From Gammaproteobacteria bacterium (GTDB lineage: Bacteria; Pseudomonadota; Gammaproteobacteria; Burkholderiales; JAHFRG01), in contig JBGQCF010000001.1 of NCBI GenBank assembly GCA_041495205.1, positions 64,429-128,428 of the forward strand: a stretch of 64,000 nucleotides of DNA. Direction: 5' to 3'. Positions 31,958-54,540 of this stretch are shown in pieces; the stretch's first letter is position 1; each line of letters begins with the position of its first letter. Under the pieces are notes generated by a model that saw only the letters and a list, made by a program, of their open reading frames with translations, did no database searches and was not told the origin of the DNA. A program made the translations under genes and the position numbers.

Positions 31958-31969
31958 ATTTTTATTTAC

Positions 31970-36055: not shown

Positions 36056-37699
36056 CTAAATGTGTGCCACCTTCAATTGAAAATTGACATGAGAACAAAG
36101 CCAGGCCTTAAGCTGGTCCGGCCCCGAGATAATAGGGATTCCATGGGCTGCCCTGTCATCGCTTTGCAAGTGACTGGTAGGATCATAATACACGGAAGGC
36201 TTGCCCAGCTCCCTGGCGATCAACGCCGTCGAAGTAAACGGCATGGAAATCACCGCGCAACTCGACTCGATAACCCGCAAGGCAGAGATTTCTGGTTCAA
36301 CCAACACAATGCCCCCTCGCTTGGATAGCCTGTCTGCGAAATGCCGGTATTGCGGATGCGCAATGTTGCCAATTCTTCGTTTGCGCTTCCACAACATAAC
36401 TACATCCAACTGGTGAGTGGCATCGGCAATGTGCTCCAGAAACCTTTCACTCGTGGCAGGAATGTAGAATTCGTAATCGGCACCCAATAAGCAGTAACTT
36501 GACAGCCTGTGAGGCGTGATATCGAAAACTGCCACTCCGGGCCTTTCTGGTTGTGGCATCTCGACGGCACTACTCTGGAAGTAGATCGGGCCGACGACGC
36601 TTACGTTAGCGCTCTCGCCGACGGCACGGCGGACGAAATCCGCTTGATACTCATCCCATACCAGATAGTGAGGCCAATTCATGGCCTGCCAGCCATACAT
36701 GAGTTTTGGGTAGCCATTTGGTCGCTTAAAAGATTCGCAATTAGTTGAGTAGAAATAAAAGGTGATCCGAGAACCATGCTTTTCCGCTTCGTACGTCCAG
36801 AGTGGCCGGTAGATCCAGCCCGAATTGTGGAACAGATAATCCCGAGCCAAACTGTTGGGCTCATACGTGCGTATCGTTTCGGCTAAAGATGCTTCGCCAA
36901 GCATAAGCGCATGCCACCAACGGCCGCGCAAAAGGTCGAAAACTGCAAGTGCACCTGACGCAATACTCCATCCAATGAAGCGCACCAATGCACCAATTTG
37001 AGTCAATGGCGAGATGGCTGATGGCACCGGGATTACGGGTATGCCGTCAACGGCACTCGGAGCGACACCCTCGACGCTGTGACATAGCGTATCGAGTTCA
37101 CCAATTCTGCCAGGCCATTGCTGATACCAGGTCACAATGTCGTGGCTGCGTCCGTCCTTGCAAGGCTGAGGCAGGTTATCCGCAGTGAGTGTGCCAAAAT
37201 ACGCAAACCTTCCTGGCGCTCGAAACGAGGGACGGATTATTTCCTTCACGCTGCCGGCAAGTCGCCTTGCGATTAACACCATCCCGTAAGCGAGAAACAA
37301 GGCAACAAAACCGTTCCACGCTAACGCCGACCGAATCTTTGCGACCTTGAAACCGTGCTGCTCGACAACTCGACGCCATTCAGGCGGCAGAGGGTGAACC
37401 ACATCGGAGCCAGGCTTTCCGAGCGCGTAGAGCAGTGCTTTATTGAGATTCAACCCACCCACACGAACCAACAGATACTGCCGGATGACAAGTTCCGCAT
37501 CCGTTAAGCCGGCGCCAAAAATGCGCTTTGAAGCGCGGCCCTTGCATTGGTTTAACCGGGTGTTTGTTAAAGCTTCTTTAACGGCCGTAATTCTGCCAAG
37601 TTGATTCGACACTTTCAGGGACCGATAGCCTCGCATCATGCGCCTAAGACGCCGGCGTCCCCTGCGTTGCAGTAAATCAGTAATCAAAGGTATTTTCAT
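36056..37699 (-). CDS. Uncharacterised polysaccharide-biosynthesis protein carrying a PFTS motif
   Basis: 547 aa. AVISMPFTSTALIARELGKPSVYYDP contains the PFTS motif that I recall as the name-giving feature of a RefSeq family ('polysaccharide biosynthesis PFTS motif protein'). Its biochemical role is unknown to me. Confidence 0.45.
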   Translation of the reverse strand: MKIPLITDLLQRRGRRRLRRMMRGYRSLKVSNQLGRITAVKEALTNTRLNQCKGRASKRIFGAGLTDAELVIRQYLLVRVGGLNLNKALLYALGKPGSDVVHPLPPEWRRVVEQHGFKVAKIRSALAWNGFVALFLAYGMVLIARRLAGSVKEIIRPSFRAPGRFAYFGTLTADNLPQPCKDGRSHDIVTWYQQWPGRIGELDTLCHSVEGVAPSAVDGIPVIPVPSAISPLTQIGALVRFIGWSIASGALAVFDLLRGRWWHALMLGEASLAETIRTYEPNSLARDYLFHNSGWIYRPLWTYEAEKHGSRITFYFYSTNCESFKRPNGYPKLMYGWQAMNWPHYLVWDEYQADFVRRAVGESANVSVVGPIYFQSSAVEMPQPERPGVAVFDITPHRLSSYCLLGADYEFYIPATSERFLEHIADATHQLDVVMLWKRKRRIGNIAHPQYRHFADRLSKRGGIVLVEPEISALRVIESSCAVISMPFTSTALIARELGKPSVYYDPTSHLQSDDRAAHGIPIISGPDQLKAWLCSHVNFQLKVAHI

Positions 37700-38341: not shown

Positions 38342-39385
38342 CTACCCCACCAACTCCCACCTCATCGGTGTACCCTTCTTCACATCCTGATTTACTCGAC
38401 GTCCCAAAAGCATCTCGTAATACTTCGGTGGCAATCCCATCCCAGGACGCACACAGCGCAGATTCTCCAGTGTTAGCACCTCCCCTGCCTTGAGATCTGC
38501 TGCAATATAAATTGATCGCCGAAACACCAACGATTTCTTCTCAGCCTCGCTTGGACCATAGGTCACCTGCCCCAATGACTGCCATGCCCGTTCAGTCTCA
38601 ACCACCAGCGCACGCAGTTCCTCGGGTTCTAGCGAGAAGCTACTGTCTACGCCGCCATCGGCACGGCGCAGGGTGAAGTGTTTCTCGATGACCGTGGCAC
38701 CGTGGGCGACCGCCGCCACCGATGCACCCACTCCCATGGTGTGATCTGACAACCCCACTTCACAGTTGAACAGAGTGCGTAGGTGAGGAATGGTGAGCAC
38801 GTTGCTATCTTTTGCTGTAGCTGGATAGGTGCTGGTGCATTTGAGTAAAACAAGATCTCGGCAGCCGGCCTCGCGGGCGGCGCGCACGGCATCGTCGATT
38901 TCGGCCAGTGTCGCCATGCCGGTGGAGATGATCATCGGCTTACCGGTGGTCGCCACCTTTCGGATTAGCGGCAGATGTACGTTCTCGAACGACGCGATCT
39001 TGTAGGCGGGCACATCCAGCCCTTCGAGAAAATCGACCGCGCTTTCGTCGAACGGCGTGCTGAAGCAGAGCATGCCCCGTTCGCGCGCCCGCTGCATGAT
39101 GGGTAAATGCCATTCCCATGGAGTGTAGGCGAGCTTGTAGAGATCGTGCAGACTCTTGCCCTTCCAGAGGCTCTGCTCGTCATCGATGAAAAATTCGCCC
39201 TCTCGGACATCCAGGGTAATGGTATCCGCGGTAAAAGTCTGTAGCTTGAGGGCATGAGCGCCGGCCTTGGCTGCGGCCTCGACGATTTGCAGCGCCCGTT
39301 CAAGCGACTGGTTATGGTTGCCGGACATTTCCGCGATTACAAAAGGCGGCGCGTCGAGTCCGATCTTTCTTTCAGCTATTTGCAT
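38342..39385 (-). CDS. pseI: Pseudaminic acid synthase (NeuB family, PseI-type)
   Basis: The ORF-track start 39628 is an artefactual extension overlapping the upstream gene. ATG 39385 gives MQIAERKIGLDAPPFVIAEMSGNHNQSL. KLQTFTADTITL, SLWKGKSLHDLYKLAYTPWEWH (the insert I associate with PseI rather than NeuB/LegI), YKIASFEN and GLSDHT support the call, with a C-terminal SAF domain. Confidence 0.75.
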   Translation of the reverse strand: MQIAERKIGLDAPPFVIAEMSGNHNQSLERALQIVEAAAKAGAHALKLQTFTADTITLDVREGEFFIDDEQSLWKGKSLHDLYKLAYTPWEWHLPIMQRARERGMLCFSTPFDESAVDFLEGLDVPAYKIASFENVHLPLIRKVATTGKPMIISTGMATLAEIDDAVRAAREAGCRDLVLLKCTSTYPATAKDSNVLTIPHLRTLFNCEVGLSDHTMGVGASVAAVAHGATVIEKHFTLRRADGGVDSSFSLEPEELRALVVETERAWQSLGQVTYGPSEAEKKSLVFRRSIYIAADLKAGEVLTLENLRCVRPGMGLPPKYYEMLLGRRVNQDVKKGTPMRWELVG

Positions 39386-39396
39386 GGTCGTCCTGC

Positions 39397-40086
39397 CTAG
39401 CGTGAAATAAGCTTGCGTCCGAGGATGAAGGCTTCTGCCGCTTCCACGCCAACTGTCGCTCCGCGCCAGCGCGCCAGAGCTTCCACCGCCTGCAGCGATC
39501 GCGGATGGGGAAATTCCCGCAATTCGCCGGCATAGGCGCTGAGGGCGGAGCGCTTGATGTCCAGCGTGGCCGAAATATCCACAAAATAATTGGGCAGGAA
39601 AGGTTCCGCCGAGCCCGGAGGACGCCATTCCGTGGAGGACGGCACTTCGAAGAACAGCAACTCCTGAACCGGATGCCCGGGCTGCGGCCGGCAGGCGGCG
39701 ATTACGGCCTCATGCACCACTTGATGATCGATGTTCACATCGCCGGAGTGGTGAGTGAGCAGCGTTGACGGCCGGTATCGATCGATGAAACTTTCGATCT
39801 TCTTGACCACATCCAACAGGTCCAGCCCGTCGAGGCGGTTATCCGGCAAAGCCAGGCTTTCCACCGAAGCACAACCTAGGATACCGCAGGCGGCTTGTGC
39901 CGCCGCATTTCGCGCCGCCATTCGACCGACATCGCCTGAACTTGCAGCCTCCGGCGCCCTCGAGCCTTCCCCATCGGCCATAAGCAATACATGCACTGAG
40001 CGGCCCTCTTGCGCATAGCGGGCGATGGTTCCGCCGCAACCGAGCACTTCGTCATCTGGATGAGCCGCTACTATCAGGATAGACAT
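39397..40086 (-). CDS. PIG-L/LmbE-family N-deacetylase
   Basis: ILIVAAHPDDEVLGCGGT and HSGDVNIDH metal-binding motifs. Confidence 0.8.
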   Translation of the reverse strand: MSILIVAAHPDDEVLGCGGTIARYAQEGRSVHVLLMADGEGSRAPEAASSGDVGRMAARNAAAQAACGILGCASVESLALPDNRLDGLDLLDVVKKIESFIDRYRPSTLLTHHSGDVNIDHQVVHEAVIAACRPQPGHPVQELLFFEVPSSTEWRPPGSAEPFLPNYFVDISATLDIKRSALSAYAGELREFPHPRSLQAVEALARWRGATVGVEAAEAFILGRKLISR

Positions 40087-40089
40087 GAG

Positions 40090-40875
40090 CTAGTCCAATT
40101 TCGCCGTCAAAACGTTCCTGACAAGGTACGCGGAAATATTGCGTCCGAGGAGCGCGTCCCTCGACGCCACCAATCCCTGATGGGTGCCGCGACCCGTGTA
40201 TTTGATGGATTGGCCGTGCAGGTCGGTCAGGCGCCCTCCTGCCTCGGAAAGAATGAGTTCCGGCCCGGCAACATCCCAATCTCTAACCGGCACATCTTTG
40301 GCGAACGCGTCAGCCGAACCCTCGGCAACACGGCAAATCTTCAATCCCAGGCTTCCGCTTTCGATATATCCTTTGAATGACAAGTCGTTGTACACGCCAG
40401 CCGCCATCCCTCTGGGTTCAGGATAATTGTCAATCAACGTCAGACCCAGCGTCGTCTTGTATGGAAGCCGGCGACCATTCATGAACGCGCCAGAACCCCG
40501 GTTTGCAACAAACATCTCATCCGTGGCGGGCGCATAAACAACCGCAATCAGCGGTTCGCCATGGTCCATTAGGGCAAGCTGAGTGACATATCCGGAAAAA
40601 CCGGCAATGTAACTCGCAGTACCGTCGATCGGATCAATCAGCCAATAGCGCCCTTCGCGGAAATCAGGCGGCCCTCCCCGATCTTCCTCGCTGATTACAG
40701 GGTATTGGGTATGCAATCTGGACAACCCGGCGCAAATCATTTGATGCGCCCACTCGTCAGCCTTTGCGTGATACTGGGTGCCGTCCCACGACCCTTCGGC
40801 TCCACCGTCGGAAAGCCAGCCCCTAAGCGACGCGCCTACTTCGCGCATCATGCCGCTCAAGGCGTCAAGCATCAA
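40090..40875 (-). CDS. Inositol-monophosphatase / CysQ-family phosphatase
   Basis: ISEED, WLIDPIDGT and WDVAGPELIL are the IMPase-family metal-binding motifs. Confidence 0.75.
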   Translation of the reverse strand: MMLDALSGMMREVGASLRGWLSDGGAEGSWDGTQYHAKADEWAHQMICAGLSRLHTQYPVISEEDRGGPPDFREGRYWLIDPIDGTASYIAGFSGYVTQLALMDHGEPLIAVVYAPATDEMFVANRGSGAFMNGRRLPYKTTLGLTLIDNYPEPRGMAAGVYNDLSFKGYIESGSLGLKICRVAEGSADAFAKDVPVRDWDVAGPELILSEAGGRLTDLHGQSIKYTGRGTHQGLVASRDALLGRNISAYLVRNVLTAKLD

Positions 40876-41825
40876 ACCAACTCCTTAACCAGATTCATCT
40901 CATGACCTCTGATTGCCCCGATTTCAAAATCCTTCTGCTCGCGGGCACACTGTGCCAGCCACTCGGACTGGGGCGTCGGTTTCACGCCGGAGAACAAAAA
41001 CAAGTTCGATCCAGTGATATTCAACGCGCTTTCGCGCCACAAAGGTTCAATATCCAAATAGGCCGGCAATCGCTGCCGCAATATCTGCTCAGGGGCATCA
41101 ATCATGCATGGTTCTTTGCCCAATCCGGCAGAGATATCCCGAACCACTTGCCGAACCGCTATCCCCGCGTGGGGCAGGCACTCCCACATCACACGATCAT
41201 TTTCAAGCATTGATTGCAGACTTTCCACGATAGCACTGGATAGGTCCTCTACCCATGCAATTTGGGCAAGGTTCGTCCCGCCATTTACCAGGATAATGGG
41301 ATTGCCGTCCTGTATGCGATTGGCATAAAACGCCACGCGGCCGGTGTGATCATGGCTGCCCCAGAAGATTGGCAGCCTCAGGATTATTGCCTTACGTCCC
41401 TTTGATTGCTGAACATCAACCGCCCGCTCGGCTTCATTCTTCCCAAGCAGGTATTTCCGCGTGACAGGCAGAAGATTCTTCATCTTCTCATCTGCGGGAC
41501 GATCAATCAACTGGTCGGCGTCCCGGCTATGGCCCAACCGCGTCACCCACGTCGAAGAGATAAGAAAATAGGGGACTTTTGCGATACATCCAAGCGCTTC
41601 GCTTACGTCGAAAGAATCGTAGGCCAGGAAATCAAACACCGCATCGAATGCATCCGCTGACACGCTTCTCAAGCCCTGCGATCGTTCGGAGAGAACGCAT
41701 TTTATGCCGGTTGGCAAGTTGTCGCCGCGGCGCGATATCACCGTCACCTCTTGATTTTTGGACAAAAGTCTTCGAATTAGTGCTAACCCGAGGAGGCGGG
41801 TACCGCCGATAACCAACACCTTCAT
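40872..41825 (-). CDS. NAD-dependent epimerase/dehydratase-family protein (atypical SDR)
   Basis: MKVLVIGGTRLLGLALIRRLL Rossmann start. I recognised no clear YxxxK, so the function is uncertain. Confidence 0.55.
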   Translation of the reverse strand: MKVLVIGGTRLLGLALIRRLLSKNQEVTVISRRGDNLPTGIKCVLSERSQGLRSVSADAFDAVFDFLAYDSFDVSEALGCIAKVPYFLISSTWVTRLGHSRDADQLIDRPADEKMKNLLPVTRKYLLGKNEAERAVDVQQSKGRKAIILRLPIFWGSHDHTGRVAFYANRIQDGNPIILVNGGTNLAQIAWVEDLSSAIVESLQSMLENDRVMWECLPHAGIAVRQVVRDISAGLGKEPCMIDAPEQILRQRLPAYLDIEPLWRESALNITGSNLFLFSGVKPTPQSEWLAQCAREQKDFEIGAIRGHEMNLVKELV

Positions 41826-41829
41826 GTTG

Positions 41830-42879
41830 CTACGCTATGAATTCATTCAGCCACGTCCTTCTCAGCTTCAGGCCGTGCGAGAAAGACATGAGACCATCGG
41901 GCGCAGTCACTGAATCCTGCGACTCGCCCAAATAGACGGATACAAAATCGATGCCTGCGGCCAGCACCAAACACGCGGTCGTCGATATGCGCGGGTTTAT
42001 TTCGAACGGTTTCGCATCTCCCGCTCCAGTTTTCACGAGCTGGATGTTGTAACACCCCCCGACGGGTTGAGCTGCGTGAATTGCGGCACAGGAAGCGATC
42101 ACGCGTTCATCGTTATCCGTTTCCGCACGCAGGGTAATTCCACGCTTGATTCCGACCTTTACCGGGACGACGGCGCGCAATTTTCCCGCCCGGTCGGCGG
42201 CCATCATCACCGTATATTCCTGTCCCACAAGCAACTCCTGCAGGACGAACTCCTCCGGACGGCGACCGGAGAGAACGATATGCGCCTGCAATTCCTGTTC
42301 GGAGCGAACGATGGCAACGCCGCGCGAGCCTCGCCCCTGGCGTGGTTTGACGATGCACGGGAAGGGAATTTGCAGATGCCCGCTGAGCGGTTTGGTCTCC
42401 GGAACGGGCACACCGTGTCCCCGGAGAAGTGCGTTGGACGTCAATTTGTCAAGGTGGGCACTGACGAATGTAGCAGATGGAAGCAATACCTCGCATTTCA
42501 TTCCATCCCGCGCATTCGCAATGGGCAGCAGTTCCTCGTCAACGCCGGGGATAAGAAGGTCCGCTTCGATTTCACAGCACAGGCGCTGGAGTTCCCCGAC
42601 GAATGCGGGGGCGGACGCAAATGGTATCTGGTGCCACCGGTTCGATGCGATTGAATGGGGTTTGGCATCATTGTCGGCATCGGCAAAATGCACTTCGTAA
42701 CGCGCATCCAGCAAGCGGTTGAGCGCCTCGGTGCCAGCGCCGCCGCCACCGGTGAAAAGCAGTCTCTTGCTCGCGTTATCAGGAAACCGGCTGGCTACAA
42801 TGGTCGACACTGCCTTCCTTATCAATCCCAGGACCGCATCAAAGCGTAAGGCGATACGCGACGGCGCCCCGCGCCCCAT
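41830..42879 (-). CDS. ATP-grasp domain protein
   Basis: FPCIVKPRQGRGSRGVAIV, FVLQELLVGQEYTV and FEINPRISTT are ATP-grasp blocks. The start is uncertain because of a 41-nt overlap with the upstream gene. Confidence 0.7.
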   Translation of the reverse strand: MGRGAPSRIALRFDAVLGLIRKAVSTIVASRFPDNASKRLLFTGGGGAGTEALNRLLDARYEVHFADADNDAKPHSIASNRWHQIPFASAPAFVGELQRLCCEIEADLLIPGVDEELLPIANARDGMKCEVLLPSATFVSAHLDKLTSNALLRGHGVPVPETKPLSGHLQIPFPCIVKPRQGRGSRGVAIVRSEQELQAHIVLSGRRPEEFVLQELLVGQEYTVMMAADRAGKLRAVVPVKVGIKRGITLRAETDNDERVIASCAAIHAAQPVGGCYNIQLVKTGAGDAKPFEINPRISTTACLVLAAGIDFVSVYLGESQDSVTAPDGLMSFSHGLKLRRTWLNEFIA

Positions 42880-44416
42880 CCGGCATGCCTTCGAATCCCA
42901 AGGACTCGAAAACCTTGCGCGACGGATGATTGCCGCACTTCACCTGACCGGTTACCGAGGCGCCGGGCATGTCGCCGCGAAGCTTCAGCAAAGCCGCTTC
43001 GAGGATGCGGCGACCCAGGCCACGCCCGCGAAACACTTGCGCAAGCGAGTAATCGACTTTCCATGTGTGGTCCTGGCGCTCGAATCGCACCTGTCCGAGC
43101 GCAATACCATCAGTTGTCTCGATGATATAGAGACGGCATCCATCCGGGTTGCGCAAACGCTTCTGAAACCAGACGCGATGGCTTGCCGCGGGGATCGGCT
43201 CCGGCGAGAAAGCGTTGGCGCGAGTACTTGGGTCATTGGCCCACCTCAGCAACAGCGCCTCGTCTTCCAGCCTGGCGAGCCGTACCCGCAGCAGAGTGCT
43301 TTCCGTTACCGTCAGCGCCGCGCAAACGCGATCGACTCCGCTGCCGTCAACCGCGCCGCGACAGCGCAGGGACCAATTTTCATCCAGATCCCGTCGCAGG
43401 AGTTCGTCCAAGGCCTTGGCGATCGTCGGCTCATCCACTTCATCCCGGTTTCCCAGCCAGCGAATCAGGCCGCGTTGATGCAATTCGGCGGCGATGGGGC
43501 GCTGGTTCTCCGACAAGGTCACCACCAAAGCGGGCAACCCGAGGCATAGACGCTCCCAACTGGTCGCCCCGCCGGCGCCTATGGCCAGATCGGCCGCCAT
43601 CATTAGCGGCGCCAGGGATGGCAGGCCACTATGGAGGTGAACGTTCCCGTGCCCCGCCGCCTGCCGTCGTATCTCCGCAGTATGCGGACCGGCGGCATTG
43701 ATGACCGCATCGACCACAATGTCGGTCCGGTTGAGTTGCAGAAATGCGGCGAGGGCGCGACCCATCAGATTGTCGCTGTCGGCGCCGCTGAAAAAAATGA
43801 AAATCCGGCGGATCGGCCCTTCCCGCGGGGGAGTGCGATCACGCAGCTCCCCATAGGCGGGTTGCAGCAGAGCGTATTCCGGCCCCAGCAACAGGCTGCA
43901 CGCCGCAGGCACTTTGCCGGCGTAGCGAATGTCCATCTGCGCCACCAGGTTCTGGTCGAGGAGCAGGTCGCAGTCATGCACCCTGTCGGCCAGATCATCG
44001 ATCACCATGATGCGCTCAGCCGATGTTCGCAGGGCGCTTTCCCAGCGGGAGTCGATGGCGTAGTGGTCAACCACCAGCCAGTCGAGCTTTTTGCCCATGA
44101 ATTCGATAGCGGCGCTGGTTTGCTCAGCATCCTCCTGCCAAGTGGCTCCAAGCCAAGCTGCATGGGCGAGGGTGCCTTTGGCTTGCATTCCTGGCTTGGG
44201 TGCAGACAATCGGCTGACGGTGAAGCTCCGCTCCTCAATCAGGTTGCAGAGGTGACCGTCGTGCTCACGGCAGACGAAAGACACCACTGCACCGTGCTCA
44301 CGTAGCGCATCCGCCAGCGTCAGGGAACGCATGACGTGACCGCGACCAATGGTCAGGGATGCGTCAGTGCGTACAACGACATTAGTCACTCGACCCATGA
44401 GCTGCCCCAATCTCAA
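42839..44416 (-). CDS. pseG: Bifunctional PseG (UDP-2,4-diacetamido-2,4,6-trideoxy-L-altropyranose hydrolase) :: PseH-like GNAT acetyltransferase
   Basis: N-terminal VVRTDASLTIGRGHVMRSLTLADALREHG and GAGGATSWERLCLGLP fit PseG. The C-terminal ~165 aa (LRVRLARLEDEALLLRWANDPSTRANAF...RGRGLGRRILEAAL) is a GNAT domain, as in PseH. Confidence 0.8.
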   Translation of the reverse strand: MRLGQLMGRVTNVVVRTDASLTIGRGHVMRSLTLADALREHGAVVSFVCREHDGHLCNLIEERSFTVSRLSAPKPGMQAKGTLAHAAWLGATWQEDAEQTSAAIEFMGKKLDWLVVDHYAIDSRWESALRTSAERIMVIDDLADRVHDCDLLLDQNLVAQMDIRYAGKVPAACSLLLGPEYALLQPAYGELRDRTPPREGPIRRIFIFFSGADSDNLMGRALAAFLQLNRTDIVVDAVINAAGPHTAEIRRQAAGHGNVHLHSGLPSLAPLMMAADLAIGAGGATSWERLCLGLPALVVTLSENQRPIAAELHQRGLIRWLGNRDEVDEPTIAKALDELLRRDLDENWSLRCRGAVDGSGVDRVCAALTVTESTLLRVRLARLEDEALLLRWANDPSTRANAFSPEPIPAASHRVWFQKRLRNPDGCRLYIIETTDGIALGQVRFERQDHTWKVDYSLAQVFRGRGLGRRILEAALLKLRGDMPGASVTGQVKCGNHPSRKVFESLGFEGMPDGARGAVAYRLTL

Positions 44417-46440
44417 TTCAATCGTTTAAAACCGGCATGGCAGACCGGCCCTTTAAGCAGGTTCATGACGTCCCGCCCCTCCTCGCATTCCTTGATGAGT
44501 GCGAAAACGGGATCCAGCGCCTGGAAAAACTGCGCCACAACATCGGGAGTGTGTTCGGTGCACACATACACGCTTGTCCCGGCCAGATAACCCTTGGCCA
44601 GCATCTCCTGGGTGATCAGGGTTTTATACGCCGGCGCGTTGGGGCTGTTGAAAGAGAATCCGGTCAGCGCCGGCAAGCCGTTAGTGGTGATGGACAGTCC
44701 ATGCTTGCCGGCCAGGGCCTTCCATTTGGCGGTGATCTCCCGTCCGGTTTGGGTGATGTGTTCCCACGACTTGATGCGCTCCATGACTTCCAGCGTCTTG
44801 AGCGCCGCGCTCGGGCCGATACGTTCGGTCCAGAAGGTGCTGCTGATAAAAGTACTCTGTGCGGCTTCCATAACCGCACGTTTGCCGATGGCGGCAGTAA
44901 TGGCGTAGCCGTTGCCAAGCGCCTTGCCGAACATCGCCATGTCCGGCTCAACGCCGTAGAGCTTGTGCAGGCCGCCAAAGGTCTGGCGAAAACCGGACGT
45001 GCACTCGTCGAAGATCAGCACGATGCCTTTGTCGGTGGCGAGCTGCCTGACTTTTTCCAAAAAACCGTTCTCAGGGCCCACATTGCGCGAGACTTCCATC
45101 TTGATCACACCGATATCGTGGTCGCGCACCAGCATTTCCAACTCCGGAAAGTTGTTGTAGCTGAAAGGCAGCACGCTGCCGCGCAGGACCTGGGGTACGC
45201 CCTTGGGCTCCAGACCGGGCAGCAGATGACCGGCCAGATTTTGCTCGTCTCCCAGGTTGGCGGCCAGGTACCAATCGTGCCATCCGTGGTAGCCGCAGAT
45301 GGCGACCTTGTCGCGGCCCGAGGCGGCGCGAGCAATACGGATTGCGATGGCGTTTGCTTCGCCGCCTGAGCGTGCGAAGCGCGCCATATCCGCCCAAGGG
45401 TGCAGCGCAATCAGCTTTTCGGCCAGATAGACTTCTTCCGGGCAATTCAAGGTGGACATATTGCCGGCGGCGATGGTCTGGTGGACGGCCTCGTCCACTT
45501 CCGGATGGCCGTAACCCAGAATGTTGGTGCCGACGCCCATGATGGACATGTCGATGTATTCACGCCCGTCCAGATCCCACACACGGCAGCCCTTGGCCTT
45601 GCTGAAGTAGGCTGGCCACTGCTCGGGCAGAAACATTTCCGGCCGCTTGGAAAGCAGCATGTTGCCGCCGGGAATCACCCGCTTGGCGCGCTTCCAGAGT
45701 TTTTGTCCGGCGCCCAGAGTGGCTCCTTTGTTGCGGACGAGATGTTGGTTGGCCTGGAAGAGTGCCGGCCGTGCTTGGCGGAGCGCCAGCACTTCTTGCC
45801 AGCTAAAGTCGTTGCGCGGGTGGAAGTAGTTAAACACGGCAGCAATGACTTCAAAGTCCGCTGCTTCGTCGACCGTCCACCGCTCCATCGAGGGGTCTTC
45901 CTCATACGCAACGTTGCCGGTCTTGAACAGCCCGGACTCTCGAATGAAGGGCGTGACATGCTCGCGCTCGGCAGGTTTGGTCGCCTGCCGGGCTGCCTGT
46001 TCCAGCGCACGGAAGGAAAACACCTCCGTATCCAACCCGTCCGGGTAGGAGCGCGGCCACGTGTTGCTGAGGTAGTCGACGCCTTGCTCTTTGTGAGCGG
46101 CGATGACCAGATCGACCAGATCCGGGTCAATCAGCGGACAGTCGCCGGTAATGCGCACCACGGCTTCCGGCTGATGCGGCTTCGCGGCCTGGTAGAAGCG
46201 GTCCAGCACATCGTTTTCGCTGCCCTGAAAGACTTCGTAACCGAGACTGCGCACATGATCGGCCAAGGGCTGGTTCCGAGGATCATCCGAGGTAGCCAGG
46301 ATAATCCGGTCAATGCGCTTGGCCTTGGCCAGCCGACGCAGCAACAGCTCAATCATCGGCACGCCATTGATGGGGCGCATGACCTTGCCGGGAAAGCGAG
46401 TGGAACCCATGCGGGCCTGAACAATGGCAATGGTTTTCAT
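44413..46440 (-). CDS. Fusion: SpsF-like cytidylyltransferase domain :: class-III (glutamate-1-semialdehyde aminomutase-like) PLP aminotransferase
   Basis: N-terminal MKTIAIVQARMGSTRFPGKVMRPINGVPMIELL...RITGDCPLIDP is a CTP_transf_3 / SpsF-type domain. The C-terminal ~430 aa has GGNMLLSKRP, ARSGGEANAIAIRIARA, IFDECTSGFR and MFGKALGNGY (PLP lysine block) of class-III aminotransferases. Confidence 0.75.
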   Translation of the reverse strand: MKTIAIVQARMGSTRFPGKVMRPINGVPMIELLLRRLAKAKRIDRIILATSDDPRNQPLADHVRSLGYEVFQGSENDVLDRFYQAAKPHQPEAVVRITGDCPLIDPDLVDLVIAAHKEQGVDYLSNTWPRSYPDGLDTEVFSFRALEQAARQATKPAEREHVTPFIRESGLFKTGNVAYEEDPSMERWTVDEAADFEVIAAVFNYFHPRNDFSWQEVLALRQARPALFQANQHLVRNKGATLGAGQKLWKRAKRVIPGGNMLLSKRPEMFLPEQWPAYFSKAKGCRVWDLDGREYIDMSIMGVGTNILGYGHPEVDEAVHQTIAAGNMSTLNCPEEVYLAEKLIALHPWADMARFARSGGEANAIAIRIARAASGRDKVAICGYHGWHDWYLAANLGDEQNLAGHLLPGLEPKGVPQVLRGSVLPFSYNNFPELEMLVRDHDIGVIKMEVSRNVGPENGFLEKVRQLATDKGIVLIFDECTSGFRQTFGGLHKLYGVEPDMAMFGKALGNGYAITAAIGKRAVMEAAQSTFISSTFWTERIGPSAALKTLEVMERIKSWEHITQTGREITAKWKALAGKHGLSITTNGLPALTGFSFNSPNAPAYKTLITQEMLAKGYLAGTSVYVCTEHTPDVVAQFFQALDPVFALIKECEEGRDVMNLLKGPVCHAGFKRLN

Positions 46441-47303
46441 AGCGCAGCCCAGCGGGCGGGATTCAACAAATCGATGTCGTGGGTTTGCAATTCCCTGGGG
46501 ACTTGCGGCATCGGGCCTGCGATTGCCTGAAGAACCTCCTTGAGTTGCTTCAGGCTATCGACACCGATGATGACTTTAGTGATTTCCGAATACGATAAGG
46601 CGTAACGGAGACAGGCTTGCAATGGGGTCAGCTTGGAGTATGTCAGCCACTTTTCCAGGTTCGACCAGAGCGACGCCCACCGATTGAATTTTTTGGGGCG
46701 GTCGCTTGGTGTCATTAAAAGCAGCCCCTGGAGAAAAACCGACCGCGCGTGGAATTCTATGCCCCGCTCCGTCAGGCGAGGCAGCCAACCCGAATCGATC
46801 AAGCGGCGGTCCATGATGTTAAAAGGCGCCTGGACGATATCAAATTGATACCGGCTGCAGAGTGCGTCGAGTTCTGCGGGTTCGTAGATCGAAATGCCGA
46901 TTTTCCCGACAAGTCCGTCGCGTTTCAGTTGCTGCAAGACTTGGTGGAGCCTATCACCGTCTTGTTCCAGCAGCTGCTGCGGCCGGTGCAACAGAAGGCC
47001 GTACAGGCTTTTGATCTTCAGCCGTTGCAAGGAACTGCGGAGGGCATCTGCCACCCACTGAGAGACATCACTGCAAGCTTCCGGTACGGCCGGCAACTTC
47101 GACACGACCCGCCAGTCCGATATGCCGATCTCACCCAACCGCCTCTCGCTGTCGCCATACGCAATCGCCGTATCGAGCATCTCCATGCCGCTGGCCCTCG
47201 CATGACCGAGGATGGATTGGGCTTCTCCGTATAAAACCTGGCCTTGCTTGTTCGCGATGCCGTAATCGAGGCCAAACTGAACGGTGCCAAGGGCAAGCTT
47301 CAC
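46437..47303 (-). CDS. Aldo/keto reductase
   Basis: MKLALGTVQFGLDYG, LDTAIAYGDSE and GISIYEP fit the AKR family pattern. Confidence 0.75.
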   Translation of the reverse strand: MKLALGTVQFGLDYGIANKQGQVLYGEAQSILGHARASGMEMLDTAIAYGDSERRLGEIGISDWRVVSKLPAVPEACSDVSQWVADALRSSLQRLKIKSLYGLLLHRPQQLLEQDGDRLHQVLQQLKRDGLVGKIGISIYEPAELDALCSRYQFDIVQAPFNIMDRRLIDSGWLPRLTERGIEFHARSVFLQGLLLMTPSDRPKKFNRWASLWSNLEKWLTYSKLTPLQACLRYALSYSEITKVIIGVDSLKQLKEVLQAIAGPMPQVPRELQTHDIDLLNPARWAAL

Positions 47304-48472
47304 GCCAGCAGTCCCTTGAAAGCCCTGATGACATATTCCTGCTGGTCGTCCGTCAGGTCATAAAAAAGCGGAATGCTCAAGGCCTCCTGGTAATAGTTCC
47401 GGGCATTGGGATAATCCTCCGGCTTGAAACCCAGCCTGAGGTAATAGGGTTGGGCGGGCACCGGAATGAAATGCACCTGGGTTCCGACCTGCCGGGACTT
47501 GAGTTCCTGCATCAGTCGTCCCCGGCTCAGGCCCGCCGCTTTAAAATCAATTCGAAGCACATAAAGGTGGTGACCGCTCTGGTCGCGTCCCGCAACCTGG
47601 GCCGGACGACAATTGCGCATGCCGGAAAATGCCTTGTCGTATGCCTTGACGAGGTCGCGCCGGCGCGCAATGAACCTGTCGAGGTTTTTGAGCTGCGACA
47701 GCGCCAGGCCGCACTGGATGTCGGTGATGCGGTAGTTGAACCCCAGTTCCTGCATCTCGTAGTACCAGGGGGACTGCACGCCATCGGTTACGGCTTCCTC
47801 AGGTAATTGAAACGGATCGTCCAGTTTGTTGATGCCGTGGCTGCGCAAGCGTAAAAGTTTTCGGTAGGTGGGCTCGTCGTTAGTGGTGATCATGCCCCCC
47901 TCACCAGCCGCGATCGCCTTTACGGGGTGGAAGGAAAAGACCGTCATGAGCGAGTGCGCGCATGAGCCGACTCGCCGGCCGTCCGGGTACCGGGCGCCAA
48001 GGGCGTGGGCCGCGTCCTCAATCACGACAGCGCCTGCTTTATCGGCAGCCGATTTGATTGTGGGCATATCGCATGGCAAGCCGGCAAAATGAACGGGCAC
48101 CACCGCGCGAGCATCAGGATTTTTTGCAAGAGCCTCGTTGAGGCTGTCCGGGGAAATATTGACCGTATCGGGATCAATGTCCGCGAAGACCGGTCTTCCG
48201 CCGGCATAGAGCGCGGCATTTGCGCTGGCAACGAAGGTAACGGGCGAGGTGATCAGTGATGTGCCCGGGCCGACTCCAGCGGCCAGGGCGGCCAGATGCA
48301 GGCCGGCGGTGCCACTCGCCACCGCCACAGTAAATTTCACACCGACATACTCCGCCACGGCTCGCTCGAATCTCTCAATGGTTGGACCCTGGGTCAGCGC
48401 GCCGCTTCTCAGCACATCCACAACGGCCTGGATGTTTTCTTCATCGATATGATGTTTTCCGTATGGAATCAT
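47300..48472 (-). CDS. pseC: UDP-4-amino-4,6-dideoxy-N-acetyl-beta-L-altrosamine transaminase (DegT family, PseC-type)
   Basis: MIPYGKHHIDEENIQAVVDVLRSGALTQGPTIERFE and FSFHPVKAIAAGEGGMITTND (PLP-Lys) match my recollection of the PseC family signature. Confidence 0.8.
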   Translation of the reverse strand: MIPYGKHHIDEENIQAVVDVLRSGALTQGPTIERFERAVAEYVGVKFTVAVASGTAGLHLAALAAGVGPGTSLITSPVTFVASANAALYAGGRPVFADIDPDTVNISPDSLNEALAKNPDARAVVPVHFAGLPCDMPTIKSAADKAGAVVIEDAAHALGARYPDGRRVGSCAHSLMTVFSFHPVKAIAAGEGGMITTNDEPTYRKLLRLRSHGINKLDDPFQLPEEAVTDGVQSPWYYEMQELGFNYRITDIQCGLALSQLKNLDRFIARRRDLVKAYDKAFSGMRNCRPAQVAGRDQSGHHLYVLRIDFKAAGLSRGRLMQELKSRQVGTQVHFIPVPAQPYYLRLGFKPEDYPNARNYYQEALSIPLFYDLTDDQQEYVIRAFKGLLA

Positions 48473-49107
48473 AGATTCTGCACTTCACGGGCCAATCCGT
48501 TTTGCTCTTGCTGGTGAAGCCTTGCGATGTGCTCGTCAATTCCGCCGAGCTTTCTGCCCAGCACGCGGCAGGCTTTCCGGTTGGATAGGCTCATGTCCTG
48601 CGGCCGCCGGACCAATTCAGGGCGGTCGGCCAGGACCCCGAGCTTGATGCCACCGGGGGTAAGATTGAACCCTTCCGCGATCTTGAGCCCGAAATCGTAC
48701 TTTGAGATGCGCTCGTCCCCGACCACATGGAAGATGCCGCTGGCCTTGAGGCCGATCAGATCATGGACGGCTTGCGCCGCCGCCTCGATAAGGATCGGCG
48801 TGTAAAAGACATCTTTGAACAAGTTCAACTCTTTGCCCGAGCGGAGCGCGCCAACGATCACATCGCTGAACGAACGGCGATAGCTTGGCCCCCAACCATA
48901 GAAATTTGTGCGAACCACGAGGGATTGAGAATGAGCGTCAAGAACTCGACCCTCTGCTTCGGCTTTTGTCCGTCCATAGACATTTTTCGGTGCGACCAGG
49001 TGTGTTTCATTCACCAATGAAGCTTCCCCGGAGAACAAATGGTCCGTGGAGATATGCACCAGCGGCAATCCCAGCCTGGCACAGGCGCGCGCCACGTGGG
49101 CCGCCAA
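48469..49107 (-). pseudogene. 5'-truncated RmlD-fold reductase gene (lacks the Rossmann NAD-binding N-terminus)
   Basis: The 212 aa begin at (TTG)AAHVARACARLGLPLVHISTDHLFSG and align with residues ~95-308 of 22329..23255 (shared HISTDHLF, VRTNFxGWG, SFSD, TPIL, SGIFxxVGDERxSKYxF, RPxDMSL). The in-frame TAA of the upstream gene lies 2 codons before the first residue. Confidence 0.6.
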
Positions 49108-49113: not shown

Positions 49114-50484
49114 TTAATTCAGCAGGTCCACATGTTTGCGTAAGAATGCCGCTCCAATGCGCGCCTTGATTTCGCCTTCAGGATGGGTGGGCACGTGCTG
49201 ACGGACAATCTCCCAGAACCGTTGCTGCAATTCTTCATCTTCTTGCGTTGCCCGCCAAACGCCTTTAATGCGATCATCGACCTCTGCAGCTAAATCACGA
49301 ATTTCTTCTCGAGAGTTGCTGATTAGCTCGACACCTGCTGTTTCGAATGTTTGCGTATGGGTGGCATTTGCCACGCCAGCCACAAAAAGCTCGCGCAGGC
49401 TGAGCATACGTCCTTCTTCCTTATGCCAGGCACGCTTTAAAGTGAACGGAGTAGAGTTCCAATGATATACACTGTAAATCGTCTGTGGCCCGGAGAAGTT
49501 TACAAATGCGAAAGGTCGTTTGAATATTGTAGATACGGCAAATATTCCAGAATCGCTACCCAGATAGAATCGGCAATTACCAAGCAAATAAATGTCCGAA
49601 AAGTCGCCCCTCTCAACGTGATTTGCATAGTCGATCACCTTTGGATTGCTAGATACCAAAGGCTGCTCAGTAGATGACCCCATCCGCAAAACGTAATACC
49701 CCCTGCTTGCCAATTCCTCCGCACAGAGCGCCATACTTTGTACATCAAAATCACGGTACTTGTGATATTTCCAATCCATTCCGCTTTCCACCTGGTCGAG
49801 ATAAGCGCTGTCTCGATTGTGCAAACAGACCCATGACGCACCGATAGGAATACCGAGTCGTTCCAAAAGTTTTCTTCCCCGCGAATGCTCATCTTCAGTA
49901 AATTGAAGATGGGTATCAGTGTTTTCCAGAAAACAGAGATCTGTAGGGGGAAACGTGAGTCGATGTATATCGCCGCCGGTCCACAATTGACACGCTCTTT
50001 CCAGGGAGCCTATTAGCCCTGCGCACGGATATATACGGAAAGTTCTGGCAAACATGAGTCTTAGTTGCTGGTTACTGACCGCGCTCGAGCAGCCAATAAG
50101 ATCAAAAATACGGCGCTTGCGGCGCTCAACGTCGCGCAAACACAGATAACCTTCGGTGTTGCAAAGGTGCCCGATGCGGGAAGCATCTATTACACCAAGA
50201 CGAATCAAAATAAATGGCCGAGCGGCAACAATAAAAACCACTAAAGGCAGAAGCGCAAAGGCCTGTATCCAAGCGATGATTGCTCTCGCCGTCGGCCCTA
50301 TCATGCGACGCGTTTTGCGGATAATAACCGGCCACTCTACGGTTCTCATCCGGACACTCCACGGCGCACAAAAACAAATGTGCCAAGCACCTGCCCGCCC
50401 ATAAGCATTAGGCGCACCCGCATCAAAATCAGATCTCGCAACGAAAGATAGAGCTGATCGACCGCACCGCCGAGGTGTTTGCAA
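49114..50484 (-). CDS. Putative glycosyltransferase of an uncharacterised family (paralogue of 57879..59411)
   Basis: Shared blocks with 57879..59411: W(V/F)xLHxRD(S/A)xY, Y(R)xxD(V/I)xS, RGGY/RGYYV(L/I)R(M/V)G and F(Y/V)(L/V)G(S/V)(D/S)SG. I recall a RefSeq 'TIGR04372 family glycosyltransferase' with this look, but that is unverified. The true start is probably Met-46 (50349) or later. Confidence 0.5.
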   Translation of the reverse strand: MQTPRRCGRSALSFVARSDFDAGAPNAYGRAGAWHICFCAPWSVRMRTVEWPVIIRKTRRMIGPTARAIIAWIQAFALLPLVVFIVAARPFILIRLGVIDASRIGHLCNTEGYLCLRDVERRKRRIFDLIGCSSAVSNQQLRLMFARTFRIYPCAGLIGSLERACQLWTGGDIHRLTFPPTDLCFLENTDTHLQFTEDEHSRGRKLLERLGIPIGASWVCLHNRDSAYLDQVESGMDWKYHKYRDFDVQSMALCAEELASRGYYVLRMGSSTEQPLVSSNPKVIDYANHVERGDFSDIYLLGNCRFYLGSDSGIFAVSTIFKRPFAFVNFSGPQTIYSVYHWNSTPFTLKRAWHKEEGRMLSLRELFVAGVANATHTQTFETAGVELISNSREEIRDLAAEVDDRIKGVWRATQEDEELQQRFWEIVRQHVPTHPEGEIKARIGAAFLRKHVDLLN

Positions 50485-50667: not shown

Positions 50668-51357
50668 CTAATCCTTGTCCCATTGCGATCTCAAATCTTC
50701 GAGTGTTCTCAGGGATAGACTAATATTCTCAAATGGAATTCCTTCCAATTCTTTCATACTACGCTCCCACCATTTGGTAGCTTGAATTTTGTCAATAGTG
50801 TCGTCCGAAAATCTCATTCGGATGATTCTCGCAGGATTGCCACCAACAATTGAATATGGCGCAACGTCTTTTATCACGATAGATCCAGCCGCCACTATCG
50901 CACCATTCCCGATCTTAACCCCTTTGATAATTACAGAATTATCCCCGACCCAGACATCATTTCCGATTTCGGTCTTAACTGATCTTGCCTCTAAATAGCC
51001 CTGAGAATCTGAAGTGAGTATCGTTTCACCGTAAGATTCAGTCGTATTTCTGTACCCTACTTCATGCACAGTGAGAGAGTCCGTTGGATGCGAAAAAGCA
51101 CCCACGGAAACTCTGGATCCAAATGTACAATAATTTCCCGAACATGTATCAGCCAAATAGGAAAAATACGCAACCCCTACATATCTTCCGAGATCACTCC
51201 GATTTATACAACTACATAACCCTAAGAATAAATTCCCCGACAAACGGGAATTCATTATTTTTGCAAACGGCGCAAGCTTGATATGTTCGTTGAAGGTAAT
51301 ATCAATTTCTTTTTTATTATTTAAATAGTCGATCGTGATCTTCTTCATTTTTCGCAT
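50668..51357 (-). CDS. Hexapeptide-repeat acetyltransferase (CatB/Vat xenobiotic-acetyltransferase-like)
   Basis: [53 protein letters not shown] is the LbH core plus the typical GGNPA(R/K)xI tail. The gene is clearly AT-richer than its flanks. Confidence 0.8.
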
Positions 51358-51472
51358 TCTTTCGCGAAGCGCAACAATCGAATATGGCCTGGCTGGGGAA
51401 CGTTAAAAGACCCGGATACGCGAACCTGCATAAGCAATGATTGTATTTACCAGTTGATTGTTGTGGTTTCTA

Positions 51473-52204
51473 TCAGCTCTGGATAAATGACTCATCAGAG
51501 GAATTGATAATTTTTGCCGGCACACCCACTGCAGTAGAGTTAGTCGGCACATCCTTGAGCACCACCGCACCGGCACCTATGATTGAATTCGCACCAATTC
51601 GCACGCGATTAATAAGGACTGCGCCGGTGTGAATGTGGCAGCACTCTCCCAGAACTACGTTCCCGGCAGTCACAACGCCTGGATCAACCTGGCAGCATTC
51701 CTGCAGTACATTGTGGTGGTCAATCTGTACACCGGTGTTTACGATGACGCCTGATTGGATTTCCGCCTTGTACCCGATAATACAGCCGGCATTTATCCAC
51801 ACACCATCGTCGATTCGGGCGTTGGGCAATATTATTGTGCTTGGATGTATTGCCGAAACGAGCTGTAGGTCGCTGTTCCTGACCGACTCAATTTGATTTT
51901 GGCGGTGTCTATTGACCGGGTCGAGACAAAGTACCTTCCTTACCCCCATCCCCAATAGGATTTCAATCCAGTCTGGAGAAACAATTAGAGGGCGCCCTTT
52001 AAAGACACCTTTATGCGGAAACTCCGTCGTCTTACACACCCTTTTCTTATTCTCTTCCTCAATATCGACTTCGGTAAAAGAATCTGAATCGACGACAAAA
52101 CAGGCGATCTTCAGACCGGTCGCTTTCTCGAACCAGGATTCCACCTGCCCGGCAGATCCATCAAAGTACCCGACAATGGCAACGGCGTTTTTACGAGAAG
52201 GCAT
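51473..52204 (-). CDS. NeuD/PglD-family sugar N-acetyltransferase (LbH)
   Basis: N-terminal Rossmann-like VAIVGYFDGSAGQV, then hexapeptide repeats ending VGVPAKII, an architecture like PglD/NeuD. Confidence 0.75.
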   Translation of the reverse strand: MPSRKNAVAIVGYFDGSAGQVESWFEKATGLKIACFVVDSDSFTEVDIEEENKKRVCKTTEFPHKGVFKGRPLIVSPDWIEILLGMGVRKVLCLDPVNRHRQNQIESVRNSDLQLVSAIHPSTIILPNARIDDGVWINAGCIIGYKAEIQSGVIVNTGVQIDHHNVLQECCQVDPGVVTAGNVVLGECCHIHTGAVLINRVRIGANSIIGAGAVVLKDVPTNSTAVGVPAKIINSSDESFIQS

Positions 52205-53285
52205 GGATTGCCGAAATGACCTGCTCTATATTGGACAGCGGTTGTTCCGGCCCCGCAGGAAGGTACACGCCGGCCCTCCCGAAAGGCTCCGAATTGGGGT
52301 AATGCCCGGAATCATTAAAGTAAGGGGCACGGTTCAAGTCAGGGTAAAATGGCCGGCACTGGATACCCTTTTCAGAGAGAAAATGAATCAATTCCTCGCG
52401 GGACTCACAAAGCGCCTCGATGTAGACGGGAACCTCGCCAGCATCCAGATTCACTGGTATCAACCTTATAAATGGAATCCCCGAAAGTCCTTCCGCGTAG
52501 GCCTGATAGATCTTCTTGAGCTTCTCGATTCTTTGCGGGAGCAGTTTGAGTTGTTCTATACCCACTGCCGCCAGAATATCAGTGAATCGAAAGTTGAATC
52601 CCGGGCGATCCCATTTTGCGTTGACGATGTCACCGACTCCGTGAGTTCGCATCGCGACGAGCCTTCTATAGGTCTCCTCGTTTTTGGTGGCGACAAAACC
52701 GCCCTGTCCGGTCGAAATTACCTTTGCCACTGAAAACGAGAAGCAGCCCATGTCAGATTGAGTCCCCAGGAAGCCGTCCGGATTCCGCGAACCCAACGCT
52801 TGTGCGGCATCCTCAATTACGATCAAACCATGACGGCGGGCTATTTCGTTGATGGCACGCATATCCGCGGACCTGCCGCACACGTGTACCGGGATAATTG
52901 CCTTGGTCTTCTTGGTTATTGCTCCTTCGACCAGTTCCGCGTTGATAATCGGCCGCCCCGGCTCTACGTCAACCAACTTCACCGAAGCACCCAACAACAA
53001 AGGGGCGTGCGCAGTCGCTATCCAGGTTCTGTTGGGGACAATAACCTCATCCCCCGGGCCTACACCCGACACCCACGTACTCATCAGCAGAGCGGTACTT
53101 CCGCTCGTTGTCGCGACCACATAGGGAACACCCAGATAGGCCGCGAGGCGGCGCTCGAACTCGGCGACAACGGGCCCTTGGCTGACGTGTTCCTGAGCGA
53201 TCGCCCGCGCGATCGCTTGAGCTTCGCCGTTGTTAAATCCGGTTCTCCACCAACTGACGTTATTTTTCATTCCGCTGGGCGTCAA
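52191..53285 (-). CDS. DegT/DnrJ/EryC1/StrS-family sugar aminotransferase
   Basis: GPVVAEFERRLAAYLGVPYVVATTSGSTAL and FSFSVAKVISTGQGGFV (PLP-Lys block). Confidence 0.85.
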   Translation of the reverse strand: MTPSGMKNNVSWWRTGFNNGEAQAIARAIAQEHVSQGPVVAEFERRLAAYLGVPYVVATTSGSTALLMSTWVSGVGPGDEVIVPNRTWIATAHAPLLLGASVKLVDVEPGRPIINAELVEGAITKKTKAIIPVHVCGRSADMRAINEIARRHGLIVIEDAAQALGSRNPDGFLGTQSDMGCFSFSVAKVISTGQGGFVATKNEETYRRLVAMRTHGVGDIVNAKWDRPGFNFRFTDILAAVGIEQLKLLPQRIEKLKKIYQAYAEGLSGIPFIRLIPVNLDAGEVPVYIEALCESREELIHFLSEKGIQCRPFYPDLNRAPYFNDSGHYPNSEPFGRAGVYLPAGPEQPLSNIEQVISAIHAFS

Positions 53286-54531: not shown

Positions 54532-54540
54532 TAGATTTTT

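Follow-up and report, generated by a model that had tools for sequence, protein, structure and literature searches.

The window analysed here is the whole 64,000-nucleotide stretch of Gammaproteobacteria bacterium DNA (assembly GCA_041495205.1, contig JBGQCF010000001.1). At 44413–46440, on the minus strand, it encodes a single polypeptide (protein P0001) in which an SpsF/FlmC-type cytidylyltransferase (CT) domain is fused to a class III aminotransferase (AT) domain of the pyridoxal phosphate (PLP)-dependent type. The gene set around it is a pseudaminic acid (Pse) biosynthesis operon, in which PseC, PseG and PseI are adjacent and score above their curated cut-offs. Taking all evidence together, we tentatively read P0001 as a bifunctional enzyme of a horizontally mobile Pse-pathway variant that combines activation with cytidine monophosphate (CMP) and an extra amination, a reading to which we give slightly less than an even chance. 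Its parts differ in strength and are treated separately below. The fusion gene, its parts and the coupled aldo/keto reductase (AKR) gene are as follows, where GSA stands for glutamate-1-semialdehyde, GSAM for GSA aminomutase and ORF for open reading frame:

44413–46440, minus strand: CT-AT fusion gene (P0001), 675 codons plus stop; ORF list, both Pfam domains and co-linear homologues
45736–46440, minus strand: SpsF/FlmC-type (COG1861, PF02348) cytidylyltransferase domain, residues 1–235; Pfam CTP_transf_3 and alignment with 6OEW
45703–45735, minus strand: inter-domain linker, residues ~236–246; follows the stretch aligned with 6OEW and precedes that aligned with GSAM
44416–45702, minus strand: GSA-aminomutase-like class III PLP aminotransferase domain, residues 247–675; Pfam, NCBIfam and GSAM structures
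44923–44925, minus strand: codon of K506, the lysine predicted to form the Schiff base with PLP (FGKALGNGY); matched to the GK lysine of GSAM structures
46437–47303, minus strand: AKR gene; Pfam Aldo_ket_red, its stop overlapping the start of the fusion gene (ATGA)

The fusion ORF runs from an ATG at 46440 to a stop at 44413–44415 with no interruption in either the ORF list or the translation, which contains IVQARMGSTRFPGKV, ITGDCPLIDP and MFGKALGNGY. A first-pass annotation of this DNA had described a single uninterrupted 675-residue polypeptide at 44413–46440, and the ORF, the Pfam domains and the co-linear homologues bear this out. The position was right but the strand had been overlooked: the gene lies on the minus strand, and a plus-strand reading of the same interval is broken by a stop. 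No frameshift occurs at the domain junction, which that annotation had placed at about 45690–45720 and which was found nearby, at ~45703–45735, in DNA with no long homopolymer and no frameshift-prone run. An AlphaFold2 model of P0001, built from an alignment of 48 sequences, has a mean pLDDT of 93.7 and a pTM of 0.82; the linker reaches a pLDDT of 77–86 and is hence not disordered, and the model suggests that the two domains are held in a defined arrangement. In a search against a collection of 5.8 billion proteins, the 120 closest proteins (76–94% identity, from many independent assemblies) are all 655–690 residues long and carry both domains across an unbroken junction. Because these proteins, representatives of only 33% identity and the confidently modelled linker all span the junction, a sequencing frameshift is excluded, and we regard it as practically certain that the fusion is a genuine single polypeptide.

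The N-terminal half matches Pfam CTP_transf_3 at residues 4–170 (E 7e-33, 114.6 bits vs a cut-off of 22.6), and residues 2–232 align to positions 10–241 of the 250-residue stand-alone Leptospira cytidylyltransferase 6OEW (E 3e-41). Across 48 diverse homologues (32–52% identity), the residues Q8, R10, S13, R15 and K19 of the CTP (cytidine triphosphate)-binding motif and D100, the metal-binding aspartate of the GDxP motif, are invariant, as are D191 and D195 in the C-terminal, SpsF-specific part of the domain. These motifs line up with PAR..S.RLPGK and GDEP of KdsB structures. The domain is neither a canonical PseF (TIGR03584, 24 bits over model positions 1–53 vs a cut-off of 205.7) nor a KdsB (TIGR00466, PRK13368 and PRK05450 match only residues 1–122, with at most 77 bits vs cut-offs of 155–281; the best of them scores 77 vs 255), and the models of both families cover only its first ~120 residues. 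In the host genome (2.24 Mb, 98.9% complete), no canonical PseF occurs elsewhere (best TIGR03584 score 36 bits vs 205.7) and no second SpsF-type gene was found with the N-terminal domain as query; PF02348 is otherwise represented by just a KdsB-like gene in a different sub-cluster (25951–26721) and a gene on contig C45. Because the genome holds neither a canonical PseF nor another SpsF-type enzyme, the CT half is likely to be a CMP-pseudaminate synthetase, i.e. a non-canonical SpsF/FlmC-type stand-in for PseF, as far as sequence evidence goes.

The C-terminal half matches Pfam Aminotran_3 at residues 277–617 (E 3e-39, 135.2 bits vs a cut-off of 30.5), and residues ~247–600 align with GSAM structures (E 1e-41 to 1e-44). 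D478, which corresponds to the pyridine-nitrogen-binding aspartate of GSAM, and the neighbouring E479 are invariant among the 48 homologues, and K506, likewise matched in GSAM, is kept in at least 90% of them. Since these PLP residues are conserved, the AT half is not a dead domain. It is also not a HemL: the best NCBIfam model (PRK06209) gives 240 bits, under its cut-off of 486, the other HemL models fall equally short (TIGR00713, 187 vs 527 bits; PRK00062, 206 vs 398), and a true HemL on contig C11 scores 595 bits against GSAM structures vs 153 for the AT domain of the fusion. The low scores and the genuine HemL elsewhere in the genome weaken the aminomutase reading, although homologues are labelled 'glutamate-1-semialdehyde 2,1-aminomutase' in their source annotation. 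In profile alignments, of low confidence at this point, the GSAM segment 'eag' (FEAGF, carrying Glu406) is a three-residue insertion relative to the fusion family; Glu406 is the GSAM residue that excludes 2-oxoacids. The aminopentol aminotransferase 6HBS is among the best PDB matches and is the closest non-GSAM structure.

For both halves, the domain assignments of the first-pass annotation stand: the nucleotide-binding residues of its nucleotidyltransferase domain are retained, and its complete class III aminotransferase domain with lysine block has the conserved aspartate and lysine described above. It had also taken the coupling of the two activities to lie outside the textbook Pse pathway. 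This holds for the aminotransferase step but not for the CT half, which most likely performs the textbook last step, that of PseF.

The partner of the AT half emerges from a comparison of 80 loci from other species. An AKR gene lies immediately upstream of the fusion in 55 of the 74 loci with enough flanking sequence, and the AKR catalytic tetrad (D44, Y49, K69 and H106) is retained in at least 95% of 63 orthologues; because the tetrad is kept, the AKR is an enzyme and not a KidO-like regulator. Four loci without an AKR (L083, L085, L086 and L087) have a non-homologous Gfo/Idh/MocA oxidoreductase at the same position, and L078 has such a gene just 3' of its aminotransferase gene. In L088 and L091 the three activities form a Gfo-CT-AT triple fusion of 1,029–1,043 residues. 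Other natural fusions found include AKR-AT, Gfo-AT, GNAT-CT-AT and amidohydrolase-AT, and a CT-AKR fusion occurs in a Vibrio Pse cluster (PMC7371886). The CT, oxidoreductase and AT activities are thus joined in every combination, and two unrelated oxidoreductase families interchange. From these arrangements, a catalytically competent NAD(P) oxidoreductase appears to be an obligate companion of the AT half. That the two always occur together, whichever oxidoreductase family is used, points to an oxidise-then-transaminate tailoring of the sugar. The first-pass annotation had overlooked this oxidoreductase, which is the most informative clue to the chemistry of the AT half.

Six of the loci carry, directly after PseI and in the operon of the AKR and CT-AT module, a second triad consisting of an SpsF-type cytidylyltransferase, then a Gfo/Idh/MocA oxidoreductase and then a DegT-type aminotransferase. 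The second triads lie at:

L019, 12683–15675
L026, 10071–13974
L049, 14880–17862
L033, L044 and L048 (also present)

The six stand-alone cytidylyltransferases are SpsF-type paralogues and not canonical PseFs; they form one clade in a quick tree (SH-aLRT 100). The aminotransferase of the second triad is non-homologous to that of the fusion. The presence of a second triad makes it more credible that CMP-ulosonates are the substrates of such gene sets.

A survey of domain architectures, which the first-pass annotation had suggested, found the same fusion widely. An exhaustive profile-free search returned 41,631 matches (4,560 with E <= 1e-30), among them dozens of full-length co-linear fusion representatives with identities down to 33%, and a scan of one genome per species placed the fusion in at least 599 species. 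The carriers listed include Proteobacteria, Cyanobacteria, Chlorobi, Verrucomicrobia, Acidobacteria, Leptospira, Firmicutes, SAR11, bacteria of the candidate phyla radiation (CPR) and a Woesearchaeote. With at least 599 species and thousands of proteins of the same architecture, the fusion is neither rare nor unusual, and the CT-AT architecture is already catalogued in databases under generic or misleading names. Most of the 80 loci, from many phyla, share the gene order PseB-PseC-AKR-fusion-PseG(-GNAT)-PseI. In the host lineage, by contrast, the fusion is absent from all 30 relatives inspected (nine species of the same genus and 21 of the same order), one of which (G020) has a split pair, while it is 70–94% identical to proteins of unrelated phyla. 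The Pse sub-cluster (window positions 40001–48000) has a GC content of 0.58–0.59 vs ~0.50 in the flanking polysaccharide genes. The GC shift, the absence from the 30 relatives and the high identity across phyla indicate that the Pse cassette was most likely acquired horizontally.

Several loci depart from the common layout. In the variant clusters L039, L042, L043, L048 and L058, RmlD-like genes lie between the fusion and a divergent NeuB-like synthase, and PseG is absent. L042 (contig CAMDEC010000012.1) was binned in a 'Bifidobacterium breve' metagenome-assembled genome; its fusion is 68% identical to P0001 and its context is of proteobacterial type, and it may be a binning error, not a true actinobacterial copy. 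In L016, L024 and L038, a PIG-L deacetylase and an ATP-grasp ligase accompany the module (with an inositol-monophosphatase-like phosphatase also in L016), which suggests that de-N-acetylation of the sugar and its subsequent re-acylation are optional extras. According to the SugarBase preprint, deacetylation and formylation take place on the CMP-sugar in another organism; the preprint contains nothing on the CT-AT module.

These findings would fit a two-step scheme. In the first step, the N-terminal domain would use CTP to turn the PseI product into CMP-pseudaminate in place of PseF. In the second, the translationally coupled AKR would oxidise a secondary hydroxyl of the (probably CMP-linked) sugar to a keto group, which the class III PLP domain would convert to an amino group. 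The only free hydroxyls of Pse5Ac7Ac are those at C4 and C8, and oxidation of C8, which adjoins the terminal C9 methyl, would yield a methyl ketone of the kind on which class III (omega) transaminases typically act. C8 would therefore be the most plausible position of amination, with C4 as the alternative; that 6HBS acts on a CH3-CH(NH2)- group is a weak hint in the same direction. The product, an extra-aminated Pse derivative, would be placed on a surface polysaccharide by glycosyltransferases of the locus. The evidence for the second step consists of gene fusions and synteny, from which we infer its position and direction. That the AKR and the aminotransferase add an extra amine to the nonulosonate is a possibility that we hold slightly less firmly than the overall reading. 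The most specific version, in which the AKR or Gfo oxidoreductase and the CT-AT protein constitute an undescribed mobile module of three activities making a CMP-activated triamino nonulosonic acid (e.g. 8-amino-8-deoxy-pseudaminic acid), we consider rather unlikely. The structural literature lacks this class of sugar, yet genomes of hundreds of species, as different as SAR11, cyanobacteria, CPR bacteria and archaea, carry the module.

Several points weigh against activation plus extra amination. The literature searched yielded no nonulosonic acid bearing three amino groups and no biochemical or glycan-structure data on any member of the fusion family. Nothing beyond mentions in genome annotations came up there for a characterised CT-AT fusion, for SpsF combined with GSA aminomutase or for an AKR linked to nonulosonic acid. 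Because Caulobacter uses a stand-alone FlmC without an aminotransferase (PMC7591256), the AT and AKR activities are unneeded for Pse itself. Among the 80 loci, no extra N-acyltransferase is conserved with the module. In the six loci where PseI is followed by a further, stand-alone SpsF-type cytidylyltransferase, activation may not rest solely or mainly on the fused CT domain. Within the window, the PseB-like gene and the PseH-like GNAT domain both score under their equivalog cut-offs. Finally, the direction of the second step could be the reverse, since AKRs are usually reductases.

Four other explanations can be set against the evidence. Two of them concern the protein itself. That the single ORF is an artefact of assembly or sequencing, merging two neighbouring genes, has next to no chance. 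Adjacent but separate CT and AT genes do exist in nature, namely in L077, L080 and L089, in the relative G020 and in Legionella pneumophila serogroup 6, where the split genes Lp6_764/765 adjoin PseG (PMC3694923), but the 120 closest proteins are co-linear in many assemblies, the same architecture recurs in the genomes of at least 599 species, and the linker, itself well modelled, contains no run prone to frameshifts. Nor is the AT half at all likely to be a true GSA aminomutase or an inactive scaffold, taking no part in sugar chemistry. GSAM does provide its top family and structure matches, and database homologues bear the aminomutase label; against this stand the TIGR00713 score (187 vs 527 bits), the genuine HemL on another contig, the missing FEAGF segment (in a low-confidence alignment) and the strict association of the AT half with Pse operons.

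The other two explanations accept two working domains and assign them different chemistry. If the second step ran in reverse, the PLP domain would deaminate a Pse intermediate, e.g. one released by a deacetylase, and the AKR or Gfo enzyme would reduce the resulting ketone, giving a hydroxy (Kdn-like or epimeric) nonulosonate. AKR and Gfo/Idh/MocA enzymes interchange as ketoreductases on nucleotide-linked deoxysugars (TylCII/EryBII and SpnN/KijD10 types), which speaks for such a route, as do the intact AKR tetrad, the lack of a conserved additional acyltransferase to cap a new amine and the fact that 6HBS is a deaminating enzyme. The route would, however, be wasteful, as the operon's own PseC has just installed the amine, and a PIG-L deacetylase is present in a minority of loci, so that a free amine substrate is not generally at hand; we judge it improbable, and the less probable of the two. 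Alternatively, only the CT domain may act on Pse while the AT domain and AKR make something else, e.g. an N-acyl side chain or a small amino-alcohol substituent that is joined to the sugar afterwards, and the fusion would then reflect co-regulation or complex formation and not consecutive steps. This agrees with the variety of N-acyl groups that is common among Pse derivatives (PMC11040635), and the ATP-grasp ligase, deacetylase and phosphatase of the window's operon fit side-chain chemistry. Yet the genes for these three are missing from most loci that keep the CT/AT/oxidoreductase trio, and consecutive reactions on a single scaffold account most simply for the fusion of CT, AT and oxidoreductase in all pairs and as a triple. 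We therefore regard a separate side-chain role as doubtful and retain activation followed by an extra amination as the tentative reading.

The remaining genes of the operon, all on the minus strand with overlapping start and stop codons, and the candidate for the first Pse step are:

47300–48472, minus strand: PseC aminotransferase; TIGR03588, 478.6 bits vs a cut-off of 423.5
42839–44416, minus strand: PseG hydrolase fused to a GNAT (PseH-like) acetyltransferase; TIGR03590 PseG, 287 bits vs 153.6
41830–42879, minus strand: ATP-grasp ligase (accessory); Pfam ATP-grasp families
40872–41825, minus strand: SDR/epimerase-family oxidoreductase (accessory); Pfam Epimerase
40090–40875, minus strand: inositol-monophosphatase/CysQ-like phosphatase (accessory); Pfam Inositol_P
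39397–40086, minus strand: PIG-L family N-deacetylase (accessory); Pfam PIG-L
38342–39628, minus strand: PseI pseudaminic acid synthase; TIGR03586, 502 bits vs a cut-off of 340
6393–7460, minus strand: PseB-like UDP-N-acetylglucosamine 4,6-dehydratase; TIGR03589, 301 bits, under the cut-off of 408

The start of the PseG-GNAT gene overlaps the stop of the fusion gene; its GNAT domains lie at residues 376–509 and score 21.6 vs 93 for PseH. As the PseI model matches residues 94–422, the true start of this gene is probably downstream of the one listed. The PseB-like gene, 37 kb away, is the best candidate for the first Pse step; both it and the PseH-like GNAT domain are divergent but plausibly acceptable for their steps. 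Next to PseC, an RmlD-like ORF (48469–49107, minus strand, 212 residues) matches only positions 83–283 of the RmlD model, the substrate-binding part; it lacks the N-terminal NAD-binding part and probably represents the remnant of a gene truncated at its 5' end.

The 64-kb window as a whole is a surface-polysaccharide region, with genes for WecA-like and WbpM-like proteins, glycosyltransferases and other sugar-tailoring enzymes. A second cytidylyltransferase-centred sub-cluster (25951–33611, minus strand) holds a KdsB-like cytidylyltransferase above the NF003952 cut-off, two Gfo/Idh/MocA oxidoreductases, a HisC-like aminotransferase, a dehydrogenase resembling phosphoglycerate dehydrogenase (PGDH), an SDR, a SIS-domain protein and an AroB-related putative sugar-phosphate cyclising lyase (TIGR04425, above cut-off). 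It is another set of cytidylyltransferase, oxidoreductase and aminotransferase, possibly for an unusual amino-ulosonic or carbocyclic sugar. Four large proteins (23263–25161, 36056–37699, 49114–50484 and 57879–59411) fall into 'surface carbohydrate biosynthesis' families that are uncharacterised and were defined on O-antigen loci of the Leptospira type (TIGR04326, the PFTS-motif family TIGR04417 and two TIGR04372 glycosyltransferases) and are candidates for the transferases that use the window's CMP-sugars. The genes at 50668–56273 and 62768–63943 encode three sugar C-methyltransferase-like proteins (Methyltransf_13/14), a WbuC cupin, a DegT aminotransferase and two hexapeptide acyltransferases, and seem to form a pathway of their own, leading to a branched or methylated amino sugar.

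Sugars of the Pse type occur on flagella, capsules and lipopolysaccharides, where they influence how phages and immune systems recognise the cell. In a large proportion of environmental bacteria, and in some host-associated ones, the Pse pathway takes a variant form: its final enzyme is joined to an uncharacterised aminotransferase and coupled to an oxidoreductase. With a pathway variant this widespread, Pse-type sugars are probably more diverse chemically than the textbook pathway would indicate. In genome annotations, the fusion gene is mislabelled as 'glutamate-1-semialdehyde aminomutase' or as a generic aminotransferase. The gene in the window is one more member of an already abundant architecture, an uncharacterised variant of a known pathway.

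Among described enzymes, the CT half most resembles Caulobacter crescentus FlmC (CCNA_02946), which 'resembles cytidylyltransferases', has 'no homology to PseF' and is encoded directly upstream of the PseG homologue FlmD (PMC7591256); FlmC and five other enzymes are enough to glycosylate flagellin in a Pse-dependent manner in Escherichia coli (PMC7591256). Both proteins have an SpsF/COG1861-type domain with the motifs QARMxSTRxPGKV, R(I/L)T(G/A)DCPLxDP, EHVT and RWTVD (compared by eye with supplementary file 3 of PMC7591256), and both lie directly upstream of PseG or its homologue in a pathway without PseF. They differ in that FlmC is a stand-alone protein of ~245 residues without an aminotransferase, and the six-enzyme Caulobacter set has neither an AKR nor a class III aminotransferase. 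Bacillus subtilis SpsF is required for the transfer but not the synthesis of legionaminic acid, as expected of a CMP-activating enzyme (PMC7439481). Unlike the fusion, SpsF and 6OEW are stand-alone proteins, and SpsF serves the legionaminic, not the pseudaminic, pathway. We know of no published activity for 6OEW. Canonical PseF (TIGR03584) and KdsB are more distant relatives; they too belong to PF02348 and share the CTP-binding and GDxP metal motifs.

The AT half has the fold subgroup, the PLP lysine and aspartate, and the full-length alignment of HemL, the aminoglycoside C-6' aminotransferases, FumI and ForI; it differs from HemL in scoring under every HemL cut-off, in its fusion to a cytidylyltransferase and in its tie to Pse operons. 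For the proposed coupled chemistry, the closest parallel on an ulosonic acid is the aminated Kdo (3-deoxy-D-manno-octulosonic acid) derivative Kdo8N of Shewanella, which Gattis and colleagues reportedly traced in 2013 to a KdnB oxidase and a KdnA aminotransferase acting around KdsB. As proposed for the fusion operon, an alcohol is oxidised and then transaminated by a PLP enzyme on a 2-keto-3-deoxy-ulosonic acid, and the genes are linked to that of a cytidylyltransferase. The Kdo8N oxidase is an iron-dependent alcohol dehydrogenase, in contrast to AKR or Gfo, the Shewanella enzymes are unfused, and their substrate is free Kdo, an eight-carbon sugar, at its primary C8 alcohol; KdnA is said not to be a class III aminotransferase. 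KdnB is named Kdo 8-oxidase in Shewanella (PMC5125639).

Parallels can also be drawn outside the ulosonic acids.
WbpB/WbpE and GnnA/GnnB are pairs of a Gfo/Idh/MocA dehydrogenase and an aminotransferase from nucleotide-sugar pathways, and FrbH of FR-900098 biosynthesis is a fusion of a nucleotidyltransferase with a PLP enzyme, in which the cytidylylated substrate can pass to the fused PLP domain. The aminotransferases of WbpE, GnnB and FrbH are of the DegT type or of class I/II, their substrates are linked to uridine diphosphate or are phosphonates, and none acts on a nonulosonic acid. What WbpB/WbpE and GnnA/GnnB would share with the module proposed here is the order of the chemistry: the hydroxyl of a nucleotide-linked sugar is oxidised and then transaminated.

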